Origin: a virus
Taxonomy: Duplodnaviria; Heunggongvirae; Uroviricota; Caudoviricetes
Reading direction: 5' to 3' (one strand)
Length of the DNA stretch: 60,036 bases
Virus record (IMG/VR): IMGVR_UViG_3300017605_000626
Span: 64,001 to 124,036 of that record
Position 1 is the stretch's first letter, and each line of letters begins with the position of its first letter. This document shows positions 36,820 to 54,159 of the stretch, piece after piece. A program made the translations under genes and the position numbers. A model generated the notes under the pieces. That model had not been told where the DNA came from and ran no database searches. It saw nothing but the letters and a program-made list of their open reading frames with translations.

Positions 36820-37452
36820 TTAATCCTTTTCTACATCTATAAGTAATATTCTAATTCCGCTAAATTCGTATTGAGGGTGTGTAGAATTAGCTCCTGTTAA
36901 AGCCCCTTCCTCTTTAAAATCCCAATCTTTTGGTAATCCTAAAATATCTATAAACATTCTATGATCTACTTTATCATAGATATCACAAGTAATAATTAGC
37001 CGTTTACGTGCATGGTTAAGAAGGTTGTTAAAGGCTTTCTTTATTGTTTTAGGATTTATAAAATCTTCTACTGTTGATATATTTATAACACAATCATATT
37101 CAAATGGTGATGGAGTTAATATATCGTATTTCCAATAATTTTCAAAATCAAGTGGGTTTTTGTCAAATAAATCAGAGTTTGTGAAGTGATCACCAACGCC
37201 TCTTCTAATTGCACTTATACTTTCAGCAAAGTCCCAATGTAATTTAGAAAAGCCACAAGAAGTATTATGTACGCTGTATAAGCCATTAACATTTTCTACA
37301 ATTTGGTCGTATACGTATTTATATTCGAATCTTCTTGACCAATTAGGTGTATTGTCTTGTTTATCATTAATATTTAAAAATCTACATTCTTTTACTTTCA
37401 TATGCCTCTTTCTGCTAAAAATGCAAAGGTTTCTTCTTGAGACATTAAACAA
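36820..37452 (-). CDS. Class I SAM-dependent methyltransferase-like protein
   Basis: HNTSCG motif I-like; YDCVINISTVED; LIITCD. Confidence 0.55.
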   Translation of the reverse strand: MFNVSRRNLCIFSRKRHMKVKECRFLNINDKQDNTPNWSRRFEYKYVYDQIVENVNGLYSVHNTSCGFSKLHWDFAESISAIRRGVGDHFTNSDLFDKNPLDFENYWKYDILTPSPFEYDCVINISTVEDFINPKTIKKAFNNLLNHARKRLIITCDIYDKVDHRMFIDILGLPKDWDFKEEGALTGANSTHPQYEFSGIRILLIDVEKD

Positions 37453-38363
37453 TCATTATCATTAGATTGTCTATTATTTTTTGCTACTTCTTTGCCGTGT
37501 TTGTTGTTTACTACCACGCACATACCTACATTTTTTAACGTAGTAAGATCAAATTTTTCTTCTGTGCTTACTAGTGTTTCGTGTATTTTTTCGAAATGGT
37601 TAGGTATCCCAATTTTAATTGCTTTTTCTGGTAGCCCATATTTTTTAACAAAGTATCTTGCTATGTCTATTATTTTAGCAGACTTAACAGCTATAGGAAC
37701 CACTATTCCATTTACATCTTCAAATAAAGCATTTGCTATTAGATAAACTGCTTGATTTACATCTAATAAGAACCTTGTCATAGCTATGCTATTAACGGTT
37801 ATTTCCTTTTTATCTTGGCATTGCTTTTTAAATAAAGGTATGACTGATCCTGTTGAGTTAATTACGTTTCCATATCTAACCGAGCAAAATTTAATGTTAG
37901 CTCCTTTTCTGTTACTTTCTTGGGTTATAATCTGTTCACAAATCTTTTTACTGCTCCCATATATAGAGCACGGATTAACCGCTTTATCAGTAGATATAAA
38001 ACAAACTTTTCTAACAAATGGCGCTACCTTATTACAAGTTTCAATGACGTTTAATGTGCCATCTACATTTGTTTTTAAGCACTCAGAATAATTATCTTCA
38101 CAGGCTTTTATTTGTTTTAGAGCATGGGCAATAACTACATTTGAGGGTTTTTCTTCAGATATTACTTTGCATAGTCTGGTATTATCTCTTACATCTCCGA
38201 TAATAGTTTTTAATTTTATTTTAGTATTTTTAAATTTTTCTTTGAGTATAAGATGTTTGGCTTCATCTCTAGAATAAACTATGTAGTCATGTGTTGTTCC
38301 TAGTGTCCCTATTATAGCGGTACCTAGAAATCCTGCCCCTCCTGTTATTAGAATTTTTGACAT
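37398..38363 (-). CDS. UDP-N-acetylglucosamine 4,6-dehydratase (FnlA/WbjB/PseB family SDR)
   Basis: GGAGFLG, SRDEAKH, GDVRD, ALKQI, STDKAVNP, YGSSK, VRYGNV..STGSVIPLF, MTRF. Confidence 0.92.
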   Translation of the reverse strand: MSKILITGGAGFLGTAIIGTLGTTHDYIVYSRDEAKHLILKEKFKNTKIKLKTIIGDVRDNTRLCKVISEEKPSNVVIAHALKQIKACEDNYSECLKTNVDGTLNVIETCNKVAPFVRKVCFISTDKAVNPCSIYGSSKKICEQIITQESNRKGANIKFCSVRYGNVINSTGSVIPLFKKQCQDKKEITVNSIAMTRFLLDVNQAVYLIANALFEDVNGIVVPIAVKSAKIIDIARYFVKKYGLPEKAIKIGIPNHFEKIHETLVSTEEKFDLTTLKNVGMCVVVNNKHGKEVAKNNRQSNDNDCLMSQEETFAFLAERGI

Positions 38364-39224
38364 TTATTTTATTCTCCATCCTAAGTTATCATTGCAGATA
38401 TTAAAATACTTAGGTTGATATATTATTTCTCTGTATATACATTTATATACAAAATCTTTTACCCATGCTTCTTTTTCTTTGTGGAACTCTTCACTTTCTT
38501 TCGGGTTCCAGCCAGAAGATCTACAATAGTGTAGAAATTTGTTACCAAATAATTCTACATCAAATCCTTCTTTATAGCAAGCTTTAATTTCTTTTGGCAG
38601 CAAATTAGTGTTAACATTTCTTTCGCTTATATGCCAGCTTTGATTAAGCAACCAGCATTTTTTCTTTACTTCTGGATATTTATTAAAGTAATTATAAAAC
38701 CCGCCACCAGTATCTAAATGTGTTTCAGTTCCTTCTACTTTAATACCTTCCCAATCTAGTTCTTCCGGAGATTTGATATGCTTCATATTTAAGAAAACAA
38801 TTGTAGGGGTGATGTATTCATGGCCTTTTCTGTGCTGTGGTGCCCCCATTATACTCCAGTCATTGTCTCCCAATTTTAAGAAATCTAATAAGAAGATATC
38901 TCCGTCCATCACACCAACTATATCTAATCCTTTTATTCTAGAGGCGCTGTTCTGCCACACGTTATTAATTGCACTGGCATGATGTGCTCCAGCGTAATCA
39001 AATGGAATATCTGAGTATGTTTGAAGTGAGATTAAGTTTAATTCAGTCGCCGCCTTATTAATTTCTAGCCTCATTTCATTAGTTCTAGCATTGTTTACTA
39101 TTATTAATTGAAATGGATTTTGAAGAAATTTATAGAAACTATCAAACTGCCACTTTATAAAATGTGGTTTATTATAGTGGATACTATAAAGAGTTATGTG
39201 CGGAGACAGATTTTGTTTGATCAT
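38364..39224 (-). CDS. Putative GT-A glycosyltransferase (orphan family; paralog of 47405)
   Basis: LIIVNNAR, MDGDIF (DxD), LDTGG. Confidence 0.5.
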   Translation of the reverse strand: MIKQNLSPHITLYSIHYNKPHFIKWQFDSFYKFLQNPFQLIIVNNARTNEMRLEINKAATELNLISLQTYSDIPFDYAGAHHASAINNVWQNSASRIKGLDIVGVMDGDIFLLDFLKLGDNDWSIMGAPQHRKGHEYITPTIVFLNMKHIKSPEELDWEGIKVEGTETHLDTGGGFYNYFNKYPEVKKKCWLLNQSWHISERNVNTNLLPKEIKACYKEGFDVELFGNKFLHYCRSSGWNPKESEEFHKEKEAWVKDFVYKCIYREIIYQPKYFNICNDNLGWRIK

Positions 39225-40044
39225 ATTTTTCTGCTAGTTCTTTTATTTGTTGATAAATAGTGGGTATTTCAAAGTTTTCTATAAACCATTGATTGTTAGT
39301 AGATAGTGTTCTATCTATATTTCTTTTGCAGAAACTGGGTATTGGCTCTTTATTTGCTTTGAATTCTCTGTTTATTGCACAAAGCAATTCATATTTAGAA
39401 ATAGAATGAGGACTGAATACATGGAATATACCATATGAGAATAAATTTCTTTCTATAGTATGTCCAATTATTTTGCTTAATTGAATGGTGCTTAAACCAT
39501 TCCAATAGTTATTGATATAGCCCATTGGTTGTGTTTTAATTTCATGTAAGAACCAGTCTAATAGACCAAACTTCTTTTCAGAAAGTTCTTGTCCTATGAA
39601 ACTAGTTCTAATTACCATAGATTTACTAGGAAATTCCCCATTTAATTTTGAATGGCCATATGCTGATACTGGATCTGGTTTGTCTGCCTCTGTATACCTT
39701 CCCCTTTTGCCACTAAATACACAGTCTGTAGAGACTTGTATTAGATTTATACCATACTGGCCACATTTAAATGCTAATTTTCTAGCAAAAGAATTATTTA
39801 CTAGGTTTAAAGTGTTGTAATCATGTGGTTTTTGTGGTATTACTCCTATACAATTAATTATAAAATCATCTTTTTTTATTTTATAAAGAGGAAGTAAGTT
39901 GCTAGCTGCATTTTTCTTAGTAGCATCTAAACCTCTTCTTGTAATGCCCCGTATTTCTGTTAGTCCTTTAATTTTTCTATGCCTTAAATGATCTACTAGT
40001 GTGTGCCCTAAATTTCCAGTGGAGCCTAGAATTATGATTTTCAT
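39184..40044 (-). CDS. RmlD-like NDP-4-keto-6-deoxyhexose reductase
   Basis: GSTGNLG, INCIGV, STDCVFSG, YGHSKLNGE, IRTS. Confidence 0.9.
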   Translation of the reverse strand: MKIIILGSTGNLGHTLVDHLRHRKIKGLTEIRGITRRGLDATKKNAASNLLPLYKIKKDDFIINCIGVIPQKPHDYNTLNLVNNSFARKLAFKCGQYGINLIQVSTDCVFSGKRGRYTEADKPDPVSAYGHSKLNGEFPSKSMVIRTSFIGQELSEKKFGLLDWFLHEIKTQPMGYINNYWNGLSTIQLSKIIGHTIERNLFSYGIFHVFSPHSISKYELLCAINREFKANKEPIPSFCKRNIDRTLSTNNQWFIENFEIPTIYQQIKELAEKYDQTKSVSAHNSL

Positions 40045-41395: not shown

Positions 41396-41583
41396 TACAT
41401 TATCCTTTTTATAATTGTTTGATATGGTTCTATGCCATATACCTTTATTAACTCAGCTACTCTTTCTGAGTGTGGACAAATTGATTTTTTTCCTTTAGGT
41501 GTTCTACATGGTTCATTTGTTAGTGCTTTACATTTAGGACAGTTTAATCTAGTTTTTGCATCTGAAAATATCCAGTTTACCAT
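41395..41583 (-). CDS. Phage zinc-finger protein
   Basis: CPKCKA..EPC..PHSER. Confidence 0.6.
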   Translation of the reverse strand: MVNWIFSDAKTRLNCPKCKALTNEPCRTPKGKKSICPHSERVAELIKVYGIEPYQTIIKRIM

Positions 41584-42323
41584 TATTTTCTTTCCTTAGC
41601 TACGATTTGATTTTTATGAATTCTATAATGAACTAGTACTTGAGGAACAATACCTATTCTTGCTCCCTTATTTATTGATTTCTGCCACAGTAACAAATCT
41701 TCTAATGGTATAGCATCTTCATATGGGCCATATTTCCTCCAAAAATTCTTTGTATATGCTACACCTGGGTGGCATATTACATTGTGTCCCGCATTAAGTT
41801 CTTTCCAAACATCTCTATTAGACATTATAAGAGTATTATTGTCAGTGTCAATACCGTTTTCATTTTCTTCCACATATCTAAAATCAGATGATACCATATC
41901 ATACCTATTGTTTGCGATGAAATCTATTTGACTCATGAATCTTTCTTTGGAATAGTAATCATCTAAATTAGTGTTAAATACTACATTATAATGAGATTCA
42001 AATACAGGCTTAAGATCTGAGAAACAATAGAATAAAAGGAAGTTCATTGCATGAACATGATTAGGAAGAGGTTTGTGTATTCTTTGGTGTGTTGTGAAGT
42101 TTAATTTTCTTCCTAGTATATTGTGAAGAAATGTTTTCTTTTCTCCATACGATAGTTCAATTACATCGAAGTTTTTAAACGTTTGATTTTCTATAGATCT
42201 GACACACTTATCTATCCAATCTTTCTTATAAATTCTACTAATGTCTTTATGGTAGAAAATGACTGCATGTTTAGCAGTAGGTTCTTTGGGCACAAATTCT
42301 TTTACTAGGTCGTTATAAAGCAT
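41583..42323 (-). CDS. Glycosyltransferase family 2-like
   Basis: CVRSIENQTF, NLDDYYSKERF, ICHPGV, EDLLLW, LVHYRIH. Confidence 0.8.
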   Translation of the reverse strand: MLYNDLVKEFVPKEPTAKHAVIFYHKDISRIYKKDWIDKCVRSIENQTFKNFDVIELSYGEKKTFLHNILGRKLNFTTHQRIHKPLPNHVHAMNFLLFYCFSDLKPVFESHYNVVFNTNLDDYYSKERFMSQIDFIANNRYDMVSSDFRYVEENENGIDTDNNTLIMSNRDVWKELNAGHNVICHPGVAYTKNFWRKYGPYEDAIPLEDLLLWQKSINKGARIGIVPQVLVHYRIHKNQIVAKERK

Positions 42324-43009
42324 GTTGGCGGCTTCCTTATTCTTCTTAATATTAGGACTTGATCAGTAGAATTTTCTGTTATGTGTGTAACAGTTCTTTC
42401 TTCTTCCCAACCATATTTATTGCAGAACTTATAGAATAGTTTTTTACTTAATTTATTATGATAAAATATATCGTCATATTTTATTTCATCAAAATCTAAG
42501 TCAGATAATGGAATGAAGAAGTTTATGATGATGTTTTCTTTAGTAACTCTAAAGACTTCTCTTAGCTGCCACCTATAGTTTTCTTGGTGTTCTAGTACAT
42601 GTCTCATATAGAAGCAGTCAAAGAAATGTGTATGATAAGGGATATCATATCCATTAATAAGAGTTACTTTCATCTCTGGGTGATTTGAAGCCGCAAGAGC
42701 GCAGAACTCTGGAGTAACATCTAGGCCGTAATATTCAATAGTAGAATTAGGGGTTGATTTTAATAGTCCATTATTTTTCCACATTTGGAAATCAATTGCG
42801 GCTCCAAAACCTAGTTCTCCTATTTTAATTTTTTTAGAATTTGTAGTAGTATTTCTTATTTGATTCCCTATTTTAAGCCATTCTATTCTACCAGGATTGT
42901 CTGGTCCTTGGCCTTCTCCCCACAAAGTTCCATCTCCTGCGAGAAATTCTCCAGGATTTTTTTCTTTAAATAAATTACTCCAATTGAAATGATTTGTTTT
43001 CATGGCCAT
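42305..43009 (-). CDS. Class I SAM-dependent methyltransferase
   Basis: GELGFGAAID, YYGLDV, IPY..FDCFYMRHVLEH. Confidence 0.8.
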   Translation of the reverse strand: MAMKTNHFNWSNLFKEKNPGEFLAGDGTLWGEGQGPDNPGRIEWLKIGNQIRNTTTNSKKIKIGELGFGAAIDFQMWKNNGLLKSTPNSTIEYYGLDVTPEFCALAASNHPEMKVTLINGYDIPYHTHFFDCFYMRHVLEHQENYRWQLREVFRVTKENIIINFFIPLSDLDFDEIKYDDIFYHNKLSKKLFYKFCNKYGWEEERTVTHITENSTDQVLILRRIRKPPTCFITT

Positions 43010-43272
43010 TCCTGATAAATTAATATACCATCATCATGCTCATGTAAAAGTTCTACCGCGCTCACTCTTGGCATTTTAGACAGCAACTCTGCTAATAGAT
43101 GTGGATCATATTTATACTGATCAAAGCTATCAACTGCTGTTTCTATTAAGTCATTATTGTTGTAGCTATCACTTATAATTTCTTGATTTCTCCATACCCT
43201 AATTTTAAATTCTATGTCTCTAGTTTTATCTATCAGGAGAATATTAGTCATACTTTCTATTACTTTAGGCAC
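43000..43272 (-). CDS. Hypothetical protein
   Basis: ORF track. Confidence 0.5.
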   Translation of the reverse strand: MPKVIESMTNILLIDKTRDIEFKIRVWRNQEIISDSYNNNDLIETAVDSFDQYKYDPHLLAELLSKMPRVSAVELLHEHDDGILIYQEWP

Positions 43273-44194
43273 TTTTAAATACCTCTATATCCCTGCATAT
43301 TTCATCTTCTTGGGTTAATGTTCTTAACACACCATTACTAAATATTTCTCTATCTCCTAATAGATTGTGGTGATCTTTTAGATGAGCTAGCATATCATCA
43401 AAGGTAAAGTCTGAGAAATTTGTTTCTTGTATTCTTCTATACCAATGCATATAATCTTCACCTAAAGTCTTTTCTTTATTACTAATCCAATCTTTAGATG
43501 AACTGAATACCATGTGCCAGACTAAATTATCTATTGTGTGCCCGAACACACCCATTTCATTGGTCATGCCAAGTATTTTGTTCATGGATAAGCTTAATTT
43601 AGCTCCCATATTAATTTGGTCTGAGTAGAAGTTTGCTACCACACCATTATCTGCGTTTTGCTCGAACTCACAATTTGCTACTGGAGTAAAATTCACTTTG
43701 TATCTGTTTTCTGGGCGTAGAAATCCCACCGCCCTAGATAAACTTCTAACCTCTCTAGTTTTCCCTACTCTGAAGTAGTTGTTTATCTGTACAAAATTAC
43801 CCCATTTAGCATATCCTGGATGCATGTGTAGTCCAGTTTGTTTGCCTACGAATAATAGATCGTATTTTTCTATTAGTTTAATAGGAGCAAGCAGCCAGTT
43901 TGGATGAATAGGAATACAATCTACATCCAAGCTACAGAAGTAGTATCCCTCCGCCATAGAAGCAGCTACGTCTATCGGCCAGCCCGCATCTATTCTTGGC
44001 GCTTTTATTACTCTAGCAAAAGAAGAATATTCTATCATAAGATCATTAGGTATACCAGATTCTGTTTGATCTATAACTAATACTTCAGTTGGTAAAGTAG
44101 TTCTATGAAACTTTCTAATCTGGTGAAGATTTCTCTTTAAAAATACTAGCTCTTCTTCATAAGCTAGTGGTATTACTACACTTGCTGTGCGCAT
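43265..44194 (-). CDS. Putative GT-A glycosyltransferase
   Basis: ASVVIP, VLVIDQ, SLDVDCIP (DxD). Confidence 0.6.
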   Translation of the reverse strand: MRTASVVIPLAYEEELVFLKRNLHQIRKFHRTTLPTEVLVIDQTESGIPNDLMIEYSSFARVIKAPRIDAGWPIDVAASMAEGYYFCSLDVDCIPIHPNWLLAPIKLIEKYDLLFVGKQTGLHMHPGYAKWGNFVQINNYFRVGKTREVRSLSRAVGFLRPENRYKVNFTPVANCEFEQNADNGVVANFYSDQINMGAKLSLSMNKILGMTNEMGVFGHTIDNLVWHMVFSSSKDWISNKEKTLGEDYMHWYRRIQETNFSDFTFDDMLAHLKDHHNLLGDREIFSNGVLRTLTQEDEICRDIEVFKSA

Positions 44195-45309
44195 GAATTC
44201 TCCTTAAATATTATCTTTCTGTATAATATATCTGCAATTCTTTGTCCAGATCGACCATCACCAAAAGGAGAATCTATAGTTGCATTTAAAGATCTTTGAT
44301 ATCTTTCTTCATGATGAACTGTATAAAAACTTGCAAGTTCTCTTCTGAATGATTGTGGATCTTCACATAGTTTAGTCCCTGGAAATTTTAATACTTCTTC
44401 TCTTTCAGTGGTATCTCTTAGCACAAACAGCGGTCTTTTTATTCTTGTTATTTCTTCTTGTATGCCGCCAGAATCACTACAAACAAACCAAGAATTCATA
44501 CATTGTTTTACAAACTTATGATATGGTAAAGGGCTTTGTATAGTTACTTTATGAGAAGCTTCACAATGGTGCAAAGCTTCTTGTACTTGTCTTCCAACTT
44601 CAGGATTAGGGTGAAGAGGCAATAAACAATGAAATTCATCATGTATTTTTAGAAAGTTTAGAAGCTCTAGAAAGTATCTATATATTCTTTTGTATTTAAT
44701 ATTTTCTCTACGATGCATTGTAAAGGTAATGTAAAGTTTTTTTATTTCTTCTCTCTTGCCAAGCCCTTCTATTACGCGGTCAACGGCATCTAGAGCTGTA
44801 CTACCAGTAACCCACACATTCCTAGTTATATTTTCTATAAAAAGATTTTCTTTATTTTGTTTTGTAGGGCAAAAATGGTATTTAGATAGTTGGCTTATTA
44901 ATATCCTATTTATTTCTTCAGGAAAAGGACTATTATGGTTGTGTGTCCTTAGACCTGCTTCTACATGTGCTACTGGTGTTTCTAGATTAGAAGCACATAT
45001 AGCAGATGCAGTAGCAGTAGTTGTATCTCCTTGTACTATGATAAGATCTGGTTTATCTTCTTCAAGAATTGGTTCTAGTTTTTGTATAACAGAAGCAAAG
45101 ATAGTATTAAGAGTAGATTTAGGTGCCATTATTCCTAAATTTATATCAGATGCTAATTCTAGCAAAGAATCTTCTGCAATTTGTAGATGTTGTCCAGTGT
45201 TTATTAATCTAATATCTAGATTATCATAAGGCTTTAGGGCTCTAATTACAGGTGATATTTTTACAACTTCTGGCCTTGTTCCATATATGAATGCTACTTT
45301 CTTTTTCAT
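44176..45309 (-). CDS. wecB: Non-hydrolysing UDP-N-acetylglucosamine 2-epimerase
   Basis: GTRPEVVK, TGQH, VQGDT, HVEAGLR, PEEINR, HRREN, DSGGIQEE. Confidence 0.93.
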   Translation of the reverse strand: MKKKVAFIYGTRPEVVKISPVIRALKPYDNLDIRLINTGQHLQIAEDSLLELASDINLGIMAPKSTLNTIFASVIQKLEPILEEDKPDLIIVQGDTTTATASAICASNLETPVAHVEAGLRTHNHNSPFPEEINRILISQLSKYHFCPTKQNKENLFIENITRNVWVTGSTALDAVDRVIEGLGKREEIKKLYITFTMHRRENIKYKRIYRYFLELLNFLKIHDEFHCLLPLHPNPEVGRQVQEALHHCEASHKVTIQSPLPYHKFVKQCMNSWFVCSDSGGIQEEITRIKRPLFVLRDTTEREEVLKFPGTKLCEDPQSFRRELASFYTVHHEERYQRSLNATIDSPFGDGRSGQRIADILYRKIIFKENSCAQQV

Positions 45310-45452: not shown

Positions 45453-45453
45453 A

Positions 45454-45726
45454 CTAGTTAATATATTCTGTTTTAGTATTTTGCAATATCTTAAATTGTT
45501 CTAATTCTATCATAGTGCGAAGATAAAGTCCATCACATAACATTAATAATTCTTTTTGCATAGATTTGGAACGACACATTGATAATAGTATCAACTGTAA
45601 ACTTTCGCTATAACCTTGATAAAACTCAACACTTTTTTCTTTAGGAAATTTTAGTTCGACAAAGGCTTTTATGTTTGTATCAATTTTTTCCCAAGTCTCT
45701 CTTAGAACATTCAGGATAGTTGTCAT
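45454..45726 (-). CDS. Hypothetical protein
   Basis: ORF track. Confidence 0.5.
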   Translation of the reverse strand: MTTILNVLRETWEKIDTNIKAFVELKFPKEKSVEFYQGYSESLQLILLSMCRSKSMQKELLMLCDGLYLRTMIELEQFKILQNTKTEYIN

Positions 45727-46472
45727 TAATCTTCTTTCCTTAATTCACTGTGATTTTTGTTTAATGCTATTATTCTTTTTTTGAATGGAAGATTCCATTT
45801 TATATGTTCACTATCCTCTGGATAAATATAGCCACTATCTAATGTTTTAACTTCTTGATCAATTAGATATCTATTAAAATAACTTTCATCGTGCCACTTT
45901 GCTATAATATTAACACATTCATCTAAGGCCAGCATTGTGGATATTTCTTGGCACATTGATAAGTATTTAGCAGAAGAAGCGCCATTGAATCCCCCTGCCC
46001 AATATGTTTTTCTTTGGGCTGGTGATACAAAAGCGACGGAAGACATACTTGTTTCCCAATCTCCACCGCCCTGATAATATCCGGGATGTTTTACAGCAAC
46101 TATTTGATTAGGGTTATCTGGTAATACCTCTTCATCTATAATAGACTCTACTTTCATATCCGCATCTATGTAGTACAGATAGTCAAAGTTCTTTAGATGT
46201 TCTTTGTGTTTATTAAAGATATTATAGCGATGTAGCGTCATGTATGGCCAAGGTTTATGTGTTACTTCAAACGCACTAACATGTACTCTATTATTACAAT
46301 TTTTTGCGGTGTGTTCTTTGAAGTTATATATTTGGCTATACGGAGCATCTGTGAATAACATTAATCCAATTCTATGTTCAGGTAAAAAATTAGTAGCAAT
46401 AGACGTAAATAGAGGGTTTATAAAATCATTGTATCCTCTTGTTGCTATAACTAATATTCCTATCTTTTTCAT
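45726..46472 (-). CDS. Glycosyltransferase family 6 (ABO-type alpha-1,3-Gal/GalNAc transferase)
   Basis: IATRGY, WPYMTLHRY, DADM, HPGY, YWAGGFNG, WHDESYFNRY. Confidence 0.92.
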   Translation of the reverse strand: MKKIGILVIATRGYNDFINPLFTSIATNFLPEHRIGLMLFTDAPYSQIYNFKEHTAKNCNNRVHVSAFEVTHKPWPYMTLHRYNIFNKHKEHLKNFDYLYYIDADMKVESIIDEEVLPDNPNQIVAVKHPGYYQGGGDWETSMSSVAFVSPAQRKTYWAGGFNGASSAKYLSMCQEISTMLALDECVNIIAKWHDESYFNRYLIDQEVKTLDSGYIYPEDSEHIKWNLPFKKRIIALNKNHSELRKED

Positions 46473-46483
46473 TTACTAGTTCC

Positions 46484-47401
46484 TTAGTCCGTTCTATCTG
46501 CTGATAATTCAAATCTTATTGGTTCTATATTTTCTAATCTATCTACATAAAATTGACTTTCATTTATAGAATACTTACTAGTTGATTTTTTATTTGCTTT
46601 TTCTTTTTTCTTAGGCTCATCTGTATAATAGTTAAACAACTTTTTCCAAAAATAATCTTTTTGAGTTTTGTTGTTATTTTCCTCTGGATTGAAGTACCAG
46701 AAGGCTCCAATATTTTTTATTGTAATTCCACTAGGAAATGAATTGCTCATTTCATTTCCAAGAAACATTGGTAAATCATGGGTTGATCTGTTTATATCCA
46801 TGCTGCGCCAATAATTTGCATAGACTTTAGGGTTGTTTTTAAAATAAACATAGAATAATCCGCCAGGTTTTAATTGGCATCCTTTTATTTTTGCACTTCT
46901 AGCGTCTAATTCGTATACATTAGAATGATCGTGAGCTAATACTAATCTTGGCCAGATATACGTGTACTTTTCTGTGGTTATTGCCAATCCTTCTATTGAG
47001 GATCTGTTATTTATAGAGTATTGGTTTGATAATTTTAAAGCAGAATAAGCTAGAAAATTAGCATCTAATATTAAGTTGTTTCTTTCGTTAGAACATAGAT
47101 TTTGTACAACGTAATTAAAGGCTCTTTCGTATGTTATTGTGTTTTTACAATAAAATTGTTTTGGAACATTGATTATGTCCGTGAATTTAGATGTGTCTCC
47201 CCATACTTGGTATTTATTATACAGTTCTGCTGATAACTTTTCATACTTCTCCTCCATTCCTTCCTCTTCTGGCAGGGCTTTAATTAAGAAAGATCTTACG
47301 TTAAATTTAGTATGTACTTTAAGAGTTATAACTTGCATTATAGCTCTTTCAAGTTCTTCTAAACTAAGGAGAATTGTAAAAGAATCTGCTGCTGATGACA
47401 T
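46484..47401 (-). CDS. Hypothetical protein
   Basis: 305-aa ORF; no motif recognised. Confidence 0.6.
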   Translation of the reverse strand: MSSAADSFTILLSLEELERAIMQVITLKVHTKFNVRSFLIKALPEEEGMEEKYEKLSAELYNKYQVWGDTSKFTDIINVPKQFYCKNTITYERAFNYVVQNLCSNERNNLILDANFLAYSALKLSNQYSINNRSSIEGLAITTEKYTYIWPRLVLAHDHSNVYELDARSAKIKGCQLKPGGLFYVYFKNNPKVYANYWRSMDINRSTHDLPMFLGNEMSNSFPSGITIKNIGAFWYFNPEENNNKTQKDYFWKKLFNYYTDEPKKKEKANKKSTSKYSINESQFYVDRLENIEPIRFELSADRTD

Positions 47402-47404
47402 TTA

Positions 47405-48253
47405 TTATAGAACCTCATTCATCCAGTAATTTAAGAAAGCCACTTTTCTAGTAAAATATGATTGATCACTACTGTCCCAATTAGATCCTCTACCAAAATG
47501 CAACCAAGCATTATCTATAATCCAGAATTTAAATGCAGGATCATGCAGATGTTGAATAGATTTGGGTATTTTGTTGCCCACATCTAAATTCAAAGAATAT
47601 TCGTCTGGTTCTAGATGAGAATCTTTTATTAGGAAATGCAGCATAGCTCCAGAATCGAAAGGCTTATATCCTGCATTGAATTTTCTCCAGTATTCATCCC
47701 ATGTAAAACCATGTTCTTCGTCACAGATAAAGAAATCATTGGTTTCAGCATGAATCATGGCACCACGGAAATCGACAGATTTATATAGTCCATACATTCT
47801 AAATATAGGACCATTAAATACTATAAGTCCTGGCCAAAGATATGTTATTTCTTCACTGCCTTGTTTAAGCCCACACATATAGTAATCTAATTTACGGGTT
47901 ACTACACTAGGTTTTGTTATAGGAAATATGTCAAAATCAACTATGATATCACAAGTACTGTTTTTGTTTGGTACTATATTTCTAAATATCCAATTTAAAC
48001 TTTCTTGGTGTGATGTTCCAACTCTATCAAATTTGTTGTGTGTGGGTCTTATACATTCAATACCTCTTTCATTACAGTATGAGAAAATATGGTTGGCTTC
48101 ATTATCATTTCTGCCGTTGTTTATTACAACGAAGTTTACTACATTCTTTTCGCCGCCTTCTTTTGAAGGCATAGTAAGAAATTTATCAAATGATTTTAGT
48201 TGTAAGTCTAAAAAAGTTGTATTTATTAGGGTAGAGTAGACTGTATATTCCAT
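47405..48253 (-). CDS. Putative GT-A glycosyltransferase (orphan family; paralog of 38364)
   Basis: FVVINNGR, VDFDIFP (DxD), YLWPGLIVF, FDSGAML. Confidence 0.5.
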   Translation of the reverse strand: MEYTVYSTLINTTFLDLQLKSFDKFLTMPSKEGGEKNVVNFVVINNGRNDNEANHIFSYCNERGIECIRPTHNKFDRVGTSHQESLNWIFRNIVPNKNSTCDIIVDFDIFPITKPSVVTRKLDYYMCGLKQGSEEITYLWPGLIVFNGPIFRMYGLYKSVDFRGAMIHAETNDFFICDEEHGFTWDEYWRKFNAGYKPFDSGAMLHFLIKDSHLEPDEYSLNLDVGNKIPKSIQHLHDPAFKFWIIDNAWLHFGRGSNWDSSDQSYFTRKVAFLNYWMNEVL

Positions 48254-48256
48254 AGG

Positions 48257-49081
48257 TTAGGGCATTAACATCGTTCCAGGATAATATAAATCATGTTTGG
48301 TAGGGCCTTTAGGACCAAACCATTTAGCGGGGGTTACTACTAATTTATTAGCGTGATCACTAAGCCATGATCCCCACCAGCTAAAAGAGCTGTTAGCCAT
48401 AATATGATACTTACATTTAGACATTACATAAAGAGATTTGATATCACTCTTTTCATTTATAGGTATGTAGTTACAGTTTGGGAAAGATTCTTTAAACCAT
48501 CTTTCAGTAAAGTACATATCATCTGAAAATAAAAGAAACATTTTAGCTTTGGTTGTGCCGTTGGTTAGAGTTTTTACAAAATTAACCGCTTTTTTGTAGT
48601 AATCCGTTTTAATTAAATTGGTGTGGTATTCCTCTAAATCTAGGTAATCTCCGCGCCTCACATGTAGGGACACTAAAGTTATATCATCGTGGTTTAATAT
48701 AGGATTATTTTCATGTATAATTTTTCTTAGCACTGGTAATAAAGAAAACGTATTTCTTATTTCTTCTTTACAATCTTTGAAGTATTTTTCAGATTGAAAG
48801 TAACCCATTAGATCATAGTTAAATGATCTGTCGCTAAGATCTAGGTGTTTATAACTAAAATCCGCCTCTCTTACTATTTTGTACCCTTGATAATCAAGAG
48901 ATTTTTCATGATATTGTTCTAGATTAGGCAATCCATTTTCGAAATATACGCCATAGTTCCAAATAGGGAAGTAGGCATCTTTCTTATTTGCTCTAGCTAG
49001 ACCTATTGTTGACGCAATTTCGAATAAACAATTGCCGAGGCGGCCCATCTTACCTAAACGAGAGAATGTAACGATTGACAT
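48257..49081 (-). CDS. Alpha-1,2-fucosyltransferase-like (GT11)
   Basis: GRLGNCLF, GYFQSEKYF, SLHVRRGDY, FSDD, ANSSFSWWG. Confidence 0.93.
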   Translation of the reverse strand: MSIVTFSRLGKMGRLGNCLFEIASTIGLARANKKDAYFPIWNYGVYFENGLPNLEQYHEKSLDYQGYKIVREADFSYKHLDLSDRSFNYDLMGYFQSEKYFKDCKEEIRNTFSLLPVLRKIIHENNPILNHDDITLVSLHVRRGDYLDLEEYHTNLIKTDYYKKAVNFVKTLTNGTTKAKMFLLFSDDMYFTERWFKESFPNCNYIPINEKSDIKSLYVMSKCKYHIMANSSFSWWGSWLSDHANKLVVTPAKWFGPKGPTKHDLYYPGTMLMP

Positions 49082-49087
49082 TGTGTT

Positions 49088-49357
49088 TTACTCTTCATCA
49101 ATTTTTATTTTTGTTAAGTCTGGTAGTGTAATGTATGGTATAGAGTATTTTCCAGTGCCACAATCTAATGATAATCTTTCTTCTGTATTTAAAACGTCGT
49201 TGTTTCCCGCAAGTTCAAATTTTAAATACCTGTTACAATCACAACTAAAATTACCTTCTTGCCATAAGAAGAAAGAGCCGTCTTCCCACTCAAAGTCTGA
49301 TGTATAGTTTCTAATTTCTTTTGTTAGGTTATTTTTAATAGTGACTATGTATGGCAT
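49088..49357 (-). CDS. Hypothetical protein
   Basis: ORF track; GNFSCDCNR. Confidence 0.5.
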   Translation of the reverse strand: MPYIVTIKNNLTKEIRNYTSDFEWEDGSFFLWQEGNFSCDCNRYLKFELAGNNDVLNTEERLSLDCGTGKYSIPYITLPDLTKIKIDEE

Positions 49358-49551
49358 GATGAATTTGATTCCTCTTTTGTTGTATTTTCTTTAGGTGGCA
49401 ACTCCTGTAATCTAAGGCAGGTGCACGGGTGCTTGGTTTTAGTTACTAAGTTCGTGCCAATAAATCCTCTACCGTGGCAAAGATGGCAATTACTTCTTGG
49501 CACAATAACGTGTTTTTCTGGATTATAGCCATGTAAGAAGTTCTTATTCAT
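49345..49551 (-). CDS. Small zinc-binding protein (CxxCxGxG)
   Basis: CHLCHGRG..CTC. Confidence 0.5.
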   Translation of the reverse strand: MNKNFLHGYNPEKHVIVPRSNCHLCHGRGFIGTNLVTKTKHPCTCLRLQELPPKENTTKEESNSSCHT

Positions 49552-50258
49552 TAGATTTTATTTAACCTCGCAAATTTACCAAAATATTTTACCGCAGCCT
49601 CATTGTATGCTTGTGCAGCTTCTATTTCTGTTTTAAATCTACCTAGACTAATTCTTTTATAGTTTAATCCAATTTGTGATACCCAAGTTTTATATGTTTT
49701 ACACCACCACACGCCTTTGTATTTACTTGTAATGAGTTTCTTTCCTTTATAATTTTGTTTTTCTTTGTTCTGTGAATTTTGTAAGTTAGTGGCCTCCCTT
49801 AAATTTTCTTTTCTATTGTCTAAACCATTACCATTTTTATGGTCTACCTGTTTGTCTGTAGTTATTAGTAAGCGGTGTAATTTTACATGATATCCTTTTG
49901 ATTCAGATTGAACATAGAATTTAATATTGTTTTGGTAGTTGTAGTTAGCCATTAAATACCATCTATAATCTTTTACCTTATCATAATCTTCTTTATCAAT
50001 TAGGCAAATTTTTTGGCCATGCTTAGGCGACTTAATTATAATTCCTATAGTTTTATTGTCAATTTCTACTATATTATTTACATGTATTTTCCCACATGAC
50101 TTTGTACTTCCATCTTTTAGGGAATCGCTCCTTACTACTGTTTTATTGCCACAAGTACATAGACAATTCCATCTTTGGCGGCCATTTTGATCAGTGTGGC
50201 TGTAACCTAATACTTTTAAAAAGCCAAATTTTTTACCTGTTAGATCTTTAAATTTCAT
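49551..50258 (-). CDS. HNH-AP2 homing endonuclease
   Basis: VDHKNGNGLDNRKENLR; SKYKGV..AAQAYNEAAVKYFGKFA (AP2). Confidence 0.92.
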   Translation of the reverse strand: MKFKDLTGKKFGFLKVLGYSHTDQNGRQRWNCLCTCGNKTVVRSDSLKDGSTKSCGKIHVNNIVEIDNKTIGIIIKSPKHGQKICLIDKEDYDKVKDYRWYLMANYNYQNNIKFYVQSESKGYHVKLHRLLITTDKQVDHKNGNGLDNRKENLREATNLQNSQNKEKQNYKGKKLITSKYKGVWWCKTYKTWVSQIGLNYKRISLGRFKTEIEAAQAYNEAAVKYFGKFARLNKI

Positions 50259-50836
50259 TTTTGACCTCTTAATGCTTTATAGTATTCTACGTTGTCGTGT
50301 CCTTTTCTATCTTTCAGAATTTCCATTAATTCTACTTCCGAGAAAGGCTCAGCCCTCCCTAATATTTCTATAGCACTATCAATACCTACATCCATAGATC
50401 TTCTTTCTGGAAAGAGATCATTTAATAACTTTTCTCTGTTGTTGTGCATATGCCCATAAAAATGGTATGAACCATGATGCGACTTGTCCCAGAATATCAT
50501 AGGGTAATGACAACACACTGCTAATGCCCCATTAAATAGTTTAAATGTTTTAGACTCTATTAGATTTGGGCCAAATGTTTGTCTGCTCTTTTGTTTGTTA
50601 TCATGATTTCCCAATATGAATATTACATTTTTGCATTTTATTTGCATTCTATGCTTTGCTGGATTTTTCCAAGAGAAATCACCAATGATAACCAGAGTAT
50701 CTTTAGGCCCCACCTTATTATTTATATTTTCCATTACTACTTTAGCATGTTCTTCGGGATTAGTAAAGCCTTTTCTGCCTAATTTAGTAATCAGATTATC
50801 ATGTTCTAGGTGTAAGTCCGCCGAAAAGAATAACAT
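50255..50836 (-). CDS. Calcineurin-like metallophosphoesterase
   Basis: ADLH, GDF, GNHD, HYP, GHMH, DVGID. Confidence 0.9.
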   Translation of the reverse strand: MLFFSADLHLEHDNLITKLGRKGFTNPEEHAKVVMENINNKVGPKDTLVIIGDFSWKNPAKHRMQIKCKNVIFILGNHDNKQKSRQTFGPNLIESKTFKLFNGALAVCCHYPMIFWDKSHHGSYHFYGHMHNNREKLLNDLFPERRSMDVGIDSAIEILGRAEPFSEVELMEILKDRKGHDNVEYYKALRGQK

Positions 50837-50837
50837 A

Positions 50838-51071
50838 TTATTCCTGTTTGTTTTGTGCTTCTATTTCTTTCTCTTCTTCAATTCTTTTTAGCTGCGTTGT
50901 TAGGTTGCCTATGATATCAATATGAGAAAACAATATATCAATGGTTTGGTCATTTACTTTTAACAAACTATTTGAATGTTCAATTAAGCCTTTAATATTT
51001 TTCTTTAAACATTCATTTTCGTATGTAACTTCTTCGATCTTCTTCTCTAAAGCTGCTGTAGATTCTGACAT
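50838..51071 (-). CDS. Hypothetical coiled-coil protein
   Basis: ORF track. Confidence 0.5.
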   Translation of the reverse strand: MSESTAALEKKIEEVTYENECLKKNIKGLIEHSNSLLKVNDQTIDILFSHIDIIGNLTTQLKRIEEEKEIEAQNKQE

Positions 51072-51325
51072 TATTCCATTTCCTCTTCTTTTTGTCTTCG
51101 TCTTTTATCTTCTTTTTCTTTTAGTTCTGTTAAATTTCTTACTTTATTTTTTCTAAGAATTTCATTATATTCATAATCATCCCACCAACGAATATCTTTT
51201 GTAAAACCACAACCAGAGCAAATTATATTATTTTCATCTACACGATAAGTTAATTTTCCTTTATTTATCTCTTTACAACAAGAGCCGCCACACACTTGTT
51301 TAGTGTCACATTTAGGACAATTCAT
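51071..51325 (-). CDS. Hypothetical zinc-ribbon protein
   Basis: CPKC..C..CC..CSGC. Confidence 0.5.
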   Translation of the reverse strand: MNCPKCDTKQVCGGSCCKEINKGKLTYRVDENNIICSGCGFTKDIRWWDDYEYNEILRKNKVRNLTELKEKEDKRRRQKEEEME

Positions 51326-51396
51326 ATTTTATTTAAATTAGCAAATTCACCAAAATATTTAATAGCTGCTCCATTATATGCCTGTGCAGCTTCTAC
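51322..51396 (-). pseudogene. Remnant C-terminus of an AP2-domain homing endonuclease
   Basis: VEAAQAYNGAAIKYFGEFANLNKI* versus IEAAQAYNEAAVKYFGKFARLNKI* of the 49551 gene. Confidence 0.8.
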
Positions 51397-51397
51397 A

Positions 51398-52060
51398 TTA
51401 TTTAATACAATCCTCATAACTTACAATTTTTTCCTGAATGTCACTATAGGATTTTCTTTGTGAAACTAGGGCAGGATAGAATGAATAAGCTTTAATTTGA
51501 TTGTTGTCTTGAAGTTCAGCGTACATAATATCAAGTTGTTTATTTATATTCTCTGCCCAATTATCATTTTTACCTTTTATTTTGTTTATTATAACAGAAT
51601 AGGCCGAGCTTTTCAATGCATAAGCACTAGTGGTAAGTGACCAATTACATTTCATTACAAATTTATTTATAAGATGATCTCTTTTTCTTGTCCAACTAAT
51701 TTCATTGTGGTTGCTTCCCAAGTATAGTTGTTGCCAGTTATTAGGCACTAATTTATATCTTTCAGAGAAGTAGAAATCTATGCCTGGGTTTATCAGTGCG
51801 TCATCTTCTAGTATTAAAACAGAATCTAACTTCATAAGTTGTGCTAGTTCTATTATTTGGAGATGGCTTACTATGCATCCTATTTCTGCTGGTTTCAATC
51901 CCTTAGTAAAACCCCAAGGATTCCCTTTAACAGCTATTCTTCTTGTAGCTTTTATGCCTAGCTTATCTAGCTGTGCTTCCATTTGCTGGCGTCTGTCAGT
52001 GCGGTGCTCTAGGTTTATATAGAATATATGGGGGAAGTACCTGTTTAAGATTGAAGACAT
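51398..52060 (-). CDS. Glycosyltransferase family 25
   Basis: YINLEHRTDRR, EIGCIVSH, LILEDDA, AYAL. Confidence 0.9.
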   Translation of the reverse strand: MSSILNRYFPHIFYINLEHRTDRRQQMEAQLDKLGIKATRRIAVKGNPWGFTKGLKPAEIGCIVSHLQIIELAQLMKLDSVLILEDDALINPGIDFYFSERYKLVPNNWQQLYLGSNHNEISWTRKRDHLINKFVMKCNWSLTTSAYALKSSAYSVIINKIKGKNDNWAENINKQLDIMYAELQDNNQIKAYSFYPALVSQRKSYSDIQEKIVSYEDCIK

Positions 52061-52178
52061 TTATATCTTTTTGATTTCTTTTGTTTATCTAATTCTTTGT
52101 CTAAGGAATCTTGAATCCTTGCCAATACTTTTTTTGCTTTGTTATTAATTTTAGCTTTAGTTAATTTTGGGTTTCTTT

Positions 52179-54044: not shown

Positions 54045-54064
54045 ATCTTTATTTTCAATAAGTT

Positions 54065-54151: not shown

Positions 54152-54159
54152 TTATATTT

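Follow-up and report, generated by a model that had tools for sequence, protein, structure and literature searches.

Homologues of the human H and A blood-group enzymes in a sugar-building gene island of an uncultured phage

Sequence comparison confirms that an uncultured phage with a genome of ~165 kb carries true homologues of the human enzymes that make the H and A blood-group sugars. Its GT11 and GT6 genes lie in a 15-kb island of sugar-building genes (~37.4-52.1 kb, minus strand) in the window, the whole 60,036-nucleotide stretch of DNA analysed here. The island encodes soluble cytoplasmic enzymes, among them about eight glycosyltransferases (GTs) or GT-like proteins, of which about seven are probably active, and a PseB-like/RmlD-like/WecB-like sugar-nucleotide set. 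Tentatively, it may build a phage-specified oligosaccharide with an A-type branch made by GT11 and then GT6; an A-type cap is plausible, with the balance about even.

The window comes from a 124-kb contig, about 75% of the complete genome. By homology its backbone is non-cyanophage and differs from that of T4-like cyanomyoviruses: the portal shares 45% identity with its counterpart in Tunturiibacter phage Tunturi_4 and matches Pseudomonas, Rhizobium and Xanthomonas phages more distantly. The original prediction singled out GT25, GT11 and GT6 and overlooked the island around them, which has the following genes:

37398..38363 (-): PseB/FnlA-like UDP-GlcNAc 4,6-dehydratase (Polysacc_synt_2), 321 aa; Pfam PF02719 E 8e-65
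38364..39224 (-): U286, second unclassified GT-A family member, 286 aa, DxD = DGD; alignment A2
39184..40044 (-): RmlD-like sugar-nucleotide 4-reductase, 286 aa; Pfam RmlD_sub_bind E 1.6e-25
41583..42323 (-): GT2b, GT2-like glycosyltransferase, 246 aa; Pfam Glycos_transf_2 E 5e-4, under cut-off
42305..43009 (-): SAM-dependent methyltransferase, 234 aa, possibly acting on a sugar; Pfam Methyltransf_11 E 1.3e-8
43265..44194 (-): GT2-like protein, 309 aa; Pfam Glycos_transf_2 E 9e-4, under cut-off
44176..45309 (-): WecB-type non-hydrolysing UDP-GlcNAc 2-epimerase homologue, 377 aa; Pfam Epimerase_2 E 4e-80
45726..46472 (-): GT6, phage type, minimal catalytic domain, 248 aa; Pfam PF03414 E 5e-23
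46484..47401 (-): U305, degenerate paralogue of the U282/U286 family, 305 aa; BLASTP and alignment A3
47405..48253 (-): U282, unclassified GT-A family glycosyltransferase, invariant DxD, 282 aa
48257..49081 (-): GT11 alpha-1,2-fucosyltransferase homologue, 274 aa; Pfam PF01531 E 1.7e-19
49551..50258 (-): homing-endonuclease-like HNH-AP2 gene, outside the glycan chemistry; Pfam HNH_3 and AP2
50255-50836: metallophosphatase
51398..52060 (-): GT25-family glycosyltransferase, 220 aa, EDD (DxD-like) motif; Pfam PF01755 E 5e-11

The three family assignments of the original prediction hold, with all three genes on the minus strand and above the Pfam curated cut-offs: 81.8 bits against 25 for GT6, 70.6 against 23.9 for GT11, and 43.2 against 24 for GT25, whose match is limited to positions 2-138 of the 199-position profile. 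HMMER aligns the whole of GT6 with BoGT6a (E 3e-30) and human GTA (E 5e-19); its identity to assayed or solved GT6 enzymes is modest. Its DADM (46155-46166, minus strand) and WAGG (45990-46001, minus strand) motifs lie exactly where they had been placed. D103-A-D105 aligns with BoGT6a N95-A-N97 and GTA D-V-D, and A159-G-G-F162 with BoGT6a A155-G-G-L158 and GTA L-G-G-F. The W of WAGG falls at the Tyr position ahead of the specificity motif, which in the strict sense is therefore AGGF. The proposed likeness of the donor site to GTA and BoGT6a is borne out as an AGG(F/L)-type motif, with the W falling outside it; the entire phage GT6 clade has AGGF as its consensus, and the motif is not peculiar to this gene.

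GT6 has kept all the residues with which BoGT6a and human GTA bind UDP-GalNAc and 2'-fucosylated galactose. The enzyme retains DxD, His129-Pro-Gly131 (positions A1 and A2), Tyr157, AGGF, WHDES, in which Glu196 is catalytic, and at A7 the small residue Ala236; these positions govern UDP-GalNAc choice and space for 2'-fucose (PMC3516806). All three acceptor residues that accommodate 2'-fucose (His129, Gly131, Ala236) are present. GT6 is predicted to transfer alpha-1,3-GalNAc to Fuc-alpha-1,2-Gal in a metal-dependent manner.

GT11 likewise keeps its motifs. It has a PHROG 2644 match (E 1e-49), the motifs GRLGN, HVRRGDY (HxRRxD; LHVRRGDYL is encoded at 48641-48667) and NSSFSWW, the GDP-fucose motif among them, and every clade-invariant residue (alignment A4). 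The closest relative found is 40% identical and lies within a gmd-fcl-GT11-GT6-U282-GT25 cassette (locus L040). As originally noted, the window holds no GDP-fucose pathway, and this extends to the whole contig: neither gmd nor fcl is found in its 124 kb.

Gene order sets GT25 apart. GT11, U282, U305 and GT6 form a single tight block with intergenic gaps of 3-11 nt, whereas GT25 sits 2.3 kb away beyond the mobile endonuclease, cut off by the HNH-AP2 gene, which has weak paralogues at 54378-54938 and 40294-40872, and the metallophosphatase. GT25 weakly matches human COLGALT1, and its donor and acceptor are not readable from sequence. The claim that GT25 supplies the beta-galactose acceptor finds no support, the GT2-like family being an equally good candidate. 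At the sequence level, the predicted A-antigen-like product is supported by the GT6 donor and acceptor residues, the GT11 motif, the gene block and the synteny of the GT11-GT6 pair in most related phage loci, often with gmd and fcl.

The remaining island GTs include an unclassified GT-A family. U282 has no match in Pfam, NCBIfam or PHROG; its AlphaFold2 model (pLDDT 89.4) has a generic GT-A fold, with B3GalT5, B3GNT2 and BoGT6a as best matches (TM 0.35-0.45). U286 lies between the RmlD-like reductase and the PseB/FnlA-like dehydratase. U305, 31% identical to U286 over 102 aa by BLASTP, has D-A-N in place of DxD and no longer has the Gln, Asp, His and Trp that are conserved across the family (alignment A3); it is probably not catalytic. 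Of the sugar-nucleotide enzymes, the WecB homologue scores 317 bits against a cut-off of 210 for TIGR00236, while the RmlD-like reductase (TIGR01214 E 7e-22) is under cut-off and the dehydratase (TIGR03589 PseB 197 bits, FnlA 145 bits) is under both equivalog cut-offs. Together they probably make UDP-6-deoxy-HexNAc or UDP-ManNAc.

GT6 and GT11 travel together in related phages. IMG/VR holds 464 relatives of the window's GT6; counts below come from the best 80, which are loci of related phages and not independent. GT11 lies within 10 kb of GT6 in 59 of these 80 loci, in every case (59 of 59) sharing its strand, often next to it, and with 1.4 kb as the median gap. When the GT6 proteins are grouped by 70% identity, 17 of the 27 resulting clusters still have GT11; among the 27, one consists of the window's GT6 by itself. 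The GDP-fucose gene gmd occurs in 35-39 of the 80 loci and co-occurs with GT11 (both in 34, GT11 without gmd in 25, gmd alone in 5, neither in 16). Co-occurrence of GT6 and GT11 is far beyond chance, yet phylogenetically structured. The pairing is common in known phages and not special to this one. Among 50,697 GenBank phage records, 72 have a GT6 relative and 103 a GT11 relative; those with both, among the matches listed, are mainly ACG-2014f isolates plus one marine single-cell virus record. The P-SSM2 GT11 is known from its annotation.

Other island families recur around GT6 as well. GT25-like genes are nearby in 38 of the best 80 loci and the GT2b family in 42; the two are almost mutually exclusive, and GT2b is the commonest direct GT6 neighbour where no GT25-like gene is present. 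These families were collected with iterated HMMs, and Pfam recognises only 6 of 10 sampled GT25-like proteins. U282/U286 family members occur in 30 of the 80 loci, adjoining a short-chain dehydrogenase/reductase (SDR) gene in 20 of the 30; in 5 they have an SDR gene on either side.

From what is observed, namely the gene families, their conserved motifs, the gene order and its synteny in related loci, we infer donors, linkages and an order of action. GT11 would move fucose from GDP-fucose, drawn from the host or made by genes on the missing ~25% of the genome, onto a terminal beta-galactose, giving the H-type disaccharide Fuc-alpha-1,2-Gal. The metal-dependent GT6 would then add alpha-1,3-GalNAc, with host UDP-GalNAc as donor, to complete an A-type trisaccharide branch. 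The underlying chain would be built and decorated by GT25, the two GT2-like proteins, the two active GT-A members (U282, U286) and the methyltransferase, with the PseB-like/RmlD-like/WecB-like set contributing to it.

The carrier can be proposed with less assurance. A phage protein such as a virion fibre is a possible carrier, slightly favoured over host lipid-linked intermediates; lipid-linked LPS or O-unit intermediates of the host are somewhat doubtful. Several observations bear on the question: the absence of ORFs with many transmembrane segments, the lack of a priming transferase or integrase, the tail-less GT6, a GT2 gene abutting the portal gene, and a 1644-aa Ser/Thr-rich fibre gene directly upstream of the window. 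Neither the 124-kb contig nor 1.42 Mb of related loci contains an ORF with at least five TM-like segments. Bacterial LPS glycosyltransferases are likewise soluble or peripheral, so the absence of TM segments does not discriminate between carriers. The major capsid protein lacks a Ser/Thr-rich tail such as is seen in mycobacteriophages.

Remodelling of the host envelope, the usual reading of cyanophage clusters, is the strongest alternative, though unlikely. Soluble enzymes at the cytoplasmic face of the inner membrane would act on host lipid A-core or Und-PP-linked O-units, and host flippase and ligase would export the altered glycan; the changed surface of infected cells could block superinfection, or progeny adsorption to infected cells or debris. 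The island contains no membrane protein, priming transferase, flippase or polymerase, and Bac_transf is absent from the whole contig, so any lipid-linked product would have to rely on host machinery, in keeping with modification of a host glycan. That machinery would, however, have to accept a foreign glycan, and about seven probably active GTs with their own sugar-nucleotide enzymes exceed what modification needs. Seroconversion in the classical systems relies on membrane proteins encoded by temperate phages; this contig has no integrase or other sign of lysogeny. To our knowledge, every bacterial GT25, GT11 or GT6 enzyme characterised so far takes part in building LPS, LOS or O-antigen (LgtB/E, WbnK/WbnI, FutC; PMC3516806), and cyanophage papers label the same genes as LPS or cell-wall modification (PMC9602691; P-SSM2 annotation); yet this GT6 lacks the C-terminal membrane-binding domain of the bacterial GT6 enzymes that build LPS O-antigen (PMC3516806).

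Less likely still, the enzymes are real GTs of one island that form no linear H-then-A pathway, their glycan being unrelated to ABH epitopes. GT6 would then take an acceptor without fucose, or a UDP-sugar other than UDP-GalNAc; alternatively, GT11 would fucosylate a different residue or draw on another donor. In 21 of the best 80 loci no GT11 lies within 10 kb, and the AGGF/Ala/His pattern is mostly kept there too, so GT6 is not strictly dependent on a phage GT11. Two loci (L086, L087) share the window's GT6-WecB-GT2-GT2 sub-block, with homologues of the 309-aa GT2-like protein following GT6-WecB, but have no GT11. The absence of gmd and fcl from the contig, the unpredictable GT25 specificity and the island's capacity for other sugars point the same way. 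Against this stand the intact GT6 residues giving room for 2'-fucose and the N-acetyl group, the consistent strand and frequent adjacency of GT11 where present, the gmd-fcl-GT11-GT6 cassette around its closest relative, and the requirement of PaGT6, the sole assayed DxD-type minimal GT6, for H-type acceptors (PMC3516806).

Glycosylation of hydroxymethylated phage bases, as in T4 and 5mYOX/ThyS-linked phage clusters, is highly improbable: phage GT-A and GT-B enzymes do build mono- and disaccharides on 5hmC (bioRxiv 10.1101/2023.12.21.572611) and a dNMP kinase is present (34614-35216), but the contig has no thymidylate-synthase-like hydroxymethylase or C5 DNA methyltransferase, GT6, GT11 and GT25 are outside the families reported for DNA in that work, the U282 model resembles neither JGT nor T4 beta-GT among the matches listed, and the GT6 acceptor residues fit a sugar. 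A TET/JBP search of the contig gave no match, a null result of little weight because the model matched no control genome either. Searches of the contig for base-modification genes thus gave no support for DNA as the target.

The gene set itself is not new: it is already annotated in P-SSM2, and the annotations of P-SSM2 and ACG-2014f date back years. T4-like cyanophage glycan clusters (P-SSM2, PSSM2_258-271; ACG-2014f; S-SCSM1), labelled 'LPS / cell-surface', are the closest known systems by gene content. P-SSM2 and ACG-2014f have GT11, one or two unannotated genes, GT6 and then GT25 in the same order and strand, and the clusters also carry nucleotide-sugar epimerases and GT2 genes, as here. 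Identities are 30-36% for GT6, 29-33% for GT11 and 26-29% for GT25, while the genes between GT11 and GT6 have no BLAST relation to their cyanophage counterparts. ACG-2014f has gmd and an epimerase directly upstream of GT11-x-x-GT6...GT25, whereas our island lacks gmd and fcl; unlike the cyanophage clusters, it has a GT2b-type partner, a WecB homologue and an internal homing endonuclease.

Cellular systems offer further comparisons. E. coli O86 uses a GT6 (WbnI), a GT11 (WbnK) and a GT2 beta-1,3-GalT to build a blood-group-like epitope, of B type (Gal); its O-antigen cluster also has gmd, fcl, wzx and wzy, which the phage island lacks, as it does a priming transferase. BoGT6a of Bacteroides ovatus (PDB 4ayj, 4ayl, 4cj8) and human GTA, the best solved GT6 relatives, share the acceptor residues His, Gly, Tyr, Trp, Glu and small A7 with the window's GT6; BoGT6a differs in having NxN for DxD, metal independence and a membrane-binding tail, and GTA is a type II membrane protein of the Golgi and has a stem region. 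PaGT6 of Parachlamydia acanthamoebae, a DxD-type minimal, Mg/Mn-dependent GalNAc transferase, and other 'clade 1' prokaryotic GT6 enzymes resemble it by description in their ~230-250 aa domain, DxD and lack of a C-terminal membrane-binding domain (PMC3516806); PaGT6 is bacterial, whereas ours is phage-encoded and known from sequence.

Virion self-glycosylation is our slightly favoured working model for the carrier. Chloroviruses and mimiviruses encode autonomous virion glycosylation (PMC4691112, PMC9614988), and mycobacteriophage capsids and tails are glycosylated (Freeman et al. 2023, PMC10527164, as cited in PMC12582341). As far as these accounts describe them, soluble virus-encoded GTs and enzymes of sugar-nucleotide synthesis serve to glycosylate the viral structural proteins in the cytoplasm; the GT families differ from those of our island. 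What appears new here is the non-cyanophage backbone, the hybrid island with both GT25-type and GT2-type partners, and the 6-deoxy-HexNAc-type module.

The three glycosyltransferase genes named in the original prediction as an enzyme set for a blood-group-A-like glycan are all present. Each exceeds its curated Pfam cut-off, and PHROGs assignments concur for GT6, GT11 and GT25. They lie in a minus-strand island of glycan genes that also holds three members of an unclassified GT-A family (U282, U286 and U305) and a GT2-like gene (GT2b).

51398-52060, minus strand: GT25, 220 aa; PF01755 at 43.2 bits against a cut-off of 24, profile positions 2-138 of 199
48257-49081, minus strand: GT11, 274 aa; PF01531 at 70.6 bits against a cut-off of 23.9
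47405-48253, minus strand: U282, 282-aa GT-A family member
46484-47401, minus strand: U305, 305-aa GT-A family member
45726-46472, minus strand: GT6, 248 aa; PF03414 at 81.8 bits against a cut-off of 25, profile positions 77-312 of 313
41583-42323, minus strand: GT2b
38364-39224, minus strand: U286, 286-aa GT-A family member

GT6 carries the active-site residues expected of an A-type enzyme. The expected DADM and WAGG motifs translate from 46155-46166 and 45990-46001. Among solved structures GT6 comes closest to BoGT6a (E 3e-30) and human GTA/GTB (about 5e-19), aligning over its full length to BoGT6a and GTA, whereas the match to bovine alpha3GT is much weaker (8e-10). Counted along the printed alignment, D103-A-D105 corresponds to N95-A-N97 of BoGT6a and D-V-D of GTA, Y157 to BoGT6a Y153, and A159-G-G-F162 to BoGT6a A155-G-G-L158 and L-G-G-F of GTA. 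The AGGL stretch determines UDP-GalNAc versus UDP-Gal use (PMC3516806), and GT6 has the small donor-site residues of A-type enzymes (LGG in GTA, AGG in BoGT6a). At the acceptor site, H129-P-G131 aligns to BoGT6a H122-P-G124 (positions A1 and A2) and A236 to BoGT6a I228 (position A7, Ala in GTA/GTB). His129, Gly131 and Ala236 reproduce the A-type pattern of A1 His, A2 Gly/Ser and small A7; His, Gly and a small A7 residue admit 2'-fucose, where alpha3GT has Gln, Trp and Trp instead (PMC3516806). W193-H-D-E196-S aligns to BoGT6a W189-H-D-E192-S, keeping the position of the catalytic Glu192 that is essential in BoGT6a (PMC3516806), and this W-H-D-E-S motif is invariant or nearly so across 85 phage GT6 proteins.

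These residues are typical of phage GT6 enzymes. The AGG-type donor motif is present as claimed, but it does not distinguish the gene: the 85 phage proteins share AGGF, His and Ala as their consensus, so none of these is peculiar to this one. GT6 is 36% identical to the GT6 of cyanophage P-SSM2, which typifies a clade of minimal DxD-bearing prokaryotic enzymes (PMC3516806), and it fits this P-SSM2-like "clade 1" in its 248 aa length, its DxD and its lack of both a stem/TM-like segment and a C-terminal membrane-binding domain. One enzyme of that clade, PaGT6, was shown to transfer GalNAc with Mg or Mn as cofactor, using H trisaccharide and 2'-fucosyllactose, not LacNAc (PMC3516806). Literature searches turned up no phage GT6 or GT11 that had been assayed.

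GT11 has the HxRRxD and SxFSWW motifs of the alpha-1,2-fucosyltransferase family, as HVRRGDY (LHVRRGDYL at 48641-48667) and NSSFSWW, along with GRLGN near its N-terminus. All residues invariant among 31 phage GT11 proteins are kept, and a PDB sequence search matched no solved structure. The closest GT11 relative found (40% identical) sits in a gmd-fcl-GT11-GT6-U282-GT25 cassette in the related locus L040. As the original prediction held for the window, the ~75%-complete 124-kb contig has no GDP-fucose pathway: it contains neither gmd nor fcl, and its only short-chain dehydrogenase/epimerase genes are two in the island. Most simply, GDP-fucose for GT11 would be host-derived, and 25 of 59 related GT11-bearing loci have no gmd within 10 kb. 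An atypical donor for GT11, an island-made UDP-6-deoxy-L-HexNAc, was set aside because the GDP-fucose motifs are all kept and the closest GT11 lies beside gmd and fcl.

Sequence determinants and synteny together support the central chemical idea, in which GT11 would make Fuc-alpha-1,2-Gal and GT6 would then add alpha-1,3-GalNAc to it; we give this two-step scheme an even chance. Searching with a single GT6 protein retrieved no related loci and an alignment was needed; a profile of 20 GT6 homologues found 464 relatives in IMG/VR, of which the best 80 loci were analysed (ORFs of at least 70 aa; phmmer then hmmsearch, seeded with window proteins). In 59 of these 80 a GT11 is found no more than 10 kb from GT6, on the same strand every time (59/59), at a median gap of 1.4 kb and upstream in 40. 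With GT6 clustered at 70% identity, GT11 is kept in 17 of 27 clusters, one of which is the window's own GT6 alone. Genes for gmd occur in 35-39 of the 80 loci and fcl in 20-25; gmd and GT11 are both present in 34, GT11 alone in 25, gmd alone in 5 and neither in 16. Since the loci are mutually related, all such counts describe conserved synteny, not independent events.

The same arrangement appears in annotated genomes. In GenBank, 72 phage records have a GT6 relative; most of these are Synechococcus or Prochlorococcus phages, and two are phages of about 640 kb. For GT11, the number of records with relatives is 103. P-SSM2 is annotated as GT11, two hypothetical genes, GT6, a hypothetical gene, an epimerase and GT25; ACG-2014f reads gmd, epimerase, hypothetical, GT11, two hypotheticals and GT6, with GT25 farther along. 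One 8.2 kb ENA metagenome contig (L007) is arranged GT11-GT10-GT6-x-x-GT25-GT6, followed by an epimerase, an aminotransferase and a methyltransferase. GT10 is an alpha-1,3/4-fucosyltransferase family; this enzyme set could yield a difucosylated (Lewis-like) A-type glycan. Two further loci, L086 and L087 (IMGVR_UViG_3300029913_000012 and 3300028859_000204), share with the window GT6, WecB, a homologue of 36820-37452, a GT2-like gene and a GT2b-like gene, and have no GT11 within 10 kb.

GT6 may not be strictly dependent on a phage GT11. No GT11 lies nearby in 21 of the 80 loci, whose GT6 proteins mostly show the active-site residues described above, and the GT6-WecB-GT2-GT2 sub-block of the window recurs in L086 and L087 in the absence of GT11.

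GT25 is the weakest link of the first reading. Its Pfam match spans only the N-terminal two thirds of the profile. The family EDD motif is present, and there is a faint match to human collagen galactosyltransferase. The GT25 family includes both Gal and Glc transferases, so specificity is unreadable from sequence, and the window enzyme may or may not be the one that forms the beta-Gal. A homing-endonuclease-like HNH-AP2 gene (49551-50258) and a metallophosphatase gene part GT25 from GT11. The HNH-AP2 gene and two others, at 54378-54938 and 40294-40872 on the same strand, form a dispersed set of HNH or AP2-type endonuclease-like genes that resemble one another weakly. GT25-like genes are found in 38 of the 80 loci, and GT6, GT11 and a GT25-like gene together in 35; among ten sampled GT25-like proteins, Pfam recognises six at E < 1e-3, three of those under the cut-off.

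The GT2-like family is an alternative candidate for the acceptor-making step. Beside GT6 in the 80 loci, GT2b occurs without a GT25-like gene in 37, a GT25-like gene without GT2b in 33, both in 5 and neither in 5, a near mutual exclusion (Fisher p 7e-12, not corrected for the relatedness of the loci). This pattern points to a pair of cassette types, or to steps that can replace each other, and the window, with GT2b as well as GT25, appears to be one of a few hybrids.

The wider island adds sugar-nucleotide enzymes and a glycosyltransferase family of its own. GT11, U282, U305 and GT6 are separated by gaps of only 3-11 nt. Downstream of GT6 and in the same orientation come a WecB-type UDP-GlcNAc 2-epimerase (317 bits, cut-off 210), a weakly matching GT2-like gene, a methyltransferase, GT2b, an RmlD-like reductase, U286 and a PseB/FnlA-like 4,6-dehydratase. 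U282, U286 and U305 are distant paralogues of a family whose DxD is invariant, and for the family of U282 and U286 neither Pfam nor NCBIfam nor PHROG gives a match. Modelled with AlphaFold2 (pLDDT 89), U282 shows a generic GT-A fold without a close structural relative; its best structural matches are GT31 enzymes and BoGT6a (TM 0.35-0.45). U305 reads D-A-N in place of the DxD and also lacks the Gln, Asp, His and Trp conserved in the family; judged by these losses, U305 is probably a non-catalytic copy. Such a pseudo-glycosyltransferase may serve as a scaffold or specificity partner.

The unclassified family may transfer a 6-deoxy sugar made by its neighbours. It occurs in 30 of the 80 phage GT6 loci (L026, L036, L045, L050 and L073 among them), and in 20 of those 30 a member adjoins a short-chain dehydrogenase/reductase (SDR) gene; this habitual company of SDR dehydratase or reductase genes suggests that their product may be its substrate. 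In the window the RmlD-like gene, U286 and the PseB-like gene are adjacent, and neither a sugar aminotransferase (DegT) nor NeuB was found in the contig. From this combination we infer a UDP-6-deoxy-HexNAc route for the PseB-like enzyme, of L-RhaNAc, L-QuiNAc or L-FucNAc type; such routes are familiar from FnlABC and WbvBRD. A nonulosonic-acid (pseudaminic/legionaminic) pathway was rejected for want of the aminotransferase and NeuB in the contig.

The cassette sits on a backbone that is not that of a T4-like cyanophage, as its portal matches indicate. The portal shares 45% identity with its counterpart in Tunturiibacter phage Tunturi_4, and weaker matches occur in phages of Pseudomonas, Rhizobium, Xanthomonas and Escherichia, about 90-120 kb in size. 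When 43000-52200 was searched by Megablast, GenBank phages gave no match, hence no close sequenced relative among them. The left half of the window encodes the portal, the major head protein and long tail or fibre proteins on the plus strand, a block closed by a dNMP-kinase-like gene (34614-35216, plus strand); from about 36.2 kb on, all genes lie on the minus strand. A likely endolysin of the Peptidase_M15_4 type (52179-52631, minus strand) adjoins GT25. Just upstream of the island, 53656-58408 (minus strand) holds 14 tRNA genes (Asp, Asn, Met, Thr, Ser x2, Cys, His, Ala, Pro, Ile, Leu x2 and Gln), and several mechanical ORFs there are tRNA-gene read-throughs. A promoter and terminator scan of 36-53 kb gave no transcription units, its sites being no more numerous than in shuffles. 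The window spans bases 64001-124036 of the contig, an IMG/VR record that CheckV puts at 75% completeness; all absences reported here refer to the part of the genome seen, about 25% being unseen.

What the glycan is attached to is a separate question, for which we lean only slightly towards a phage protein, at a likelihood just short of even. The contig carries no lysogeny or membrane component: it has no match to tyrosine integrase PF00589 or the Bac_transf priming transferase and no ORF with at least 5 TM-like segments, such segments being absent from every island protein. The sheer size of the island and the missing membrane-binding tail of GT6 point the same way. A GT2 glycosyltransferase gene (1264-2223, plus strand; 38 bits in Pfam) shares its end position, 2223, with the start of the portal gene, which places it inside the head-morphogenesis module, and a gene for a 1644-aa Ser/Thr-rich fibre (contig 55109-60043) lies just upstream of the window. 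Precedents are described for giant viruses (PMC4691112) and mycobacteriophages (Freeman 2023, cited in PMC12582341). Against a virion carrier, the major capsid protein lacks a Ser/Thr-rich tag at its C-terminus. A literature search found no report of glycosylated cyanophage virions.

Host LPS is a less probable carrier, though a real contender. To our knowledge, all characterised bacterial members of GT25, GT11 and GT6 build LPS. The enzymes that do so are soluble or peripheral anyway, so the absence of TM segments does not discriminate between the carriers; across the 80 GT6 loci, none of 2702 ORFs in 1.42 Mb has at least 5 TM-like segments. DNA is an unlikely target, since the contig has no match to PF00303 (ThyA-like hydroxymethylase), PF00145 (C5-methyltransferase) or PF12851 (TET/JBP; a weak negative, as this model matched no control genome) and GT6, GT11 and GT25 are not among the DNA-glycosylating families of bioRxiv 10.1101/2023.12.21.572611.

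A broader reading, which we offer tentatively and think rather unlikely in full, extends the phage-protein carrier to the whole group. Widespread, all-soluble phage GT11-GT6 cassettes (464 IMG/VR relatives) would coat their own virion proteins with fucosylated ABH-like glycans rather than remodel host LPS. This phage would have two self-glycosylation systems, the island and one by the Ser/Thr-rich fibre, and would combine GT25- and GT2-type cassettes with a 6-deoxy-HexNAc module served by the unmatched GT-A family.

If the two-step chemistry is right, blood-group-A-like sugars are made by phages of very different lineages. That would bear on the origin of the vertebrate ABO enzymes, whose ancestor has been proposed to be of phage or Parachlamydia type (PMC3516806), and on the purpose of phage glycan gene clusters, a question dating from the annotation of the P-SSM2 record. 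This instance is of modest practical use. Its compact block of GT11, GT-A, pseudo-GT and GT6 is suited to expression and assay, and the candidate glycosylated fibre in the same genome makes the choice between virion and host testable by co-expression.

Phage GT6 genes themselves have been on record for more than a decade: two cyanophages are mentioned in PMC3961637 and many marine metagenome homologues in PMC3516806, and the GT11-GT6-GT25 arrangement is already visible in annotated cyanophage genomes. New here are the non-cyanophage backbone, by which the cassette is not confined to cyanomyoviruses, the hybrid cassette, the unmatched GT-A family with its degenerate copy, and the island's own dehydratase, reductase and 2-epimerase genes. 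The contig also differs from two known kinds of system. Unlike this phage contig, the ABH-like O-antigen cluster of E. coli O86 type has Wzx, Wzy and a priming transferase. Whereas the contig is free of polytopic membrane proteins and of PF00589, seroconverting temperate phages (GtrABC) pair a membrane-embedded Gtr with an integrase.
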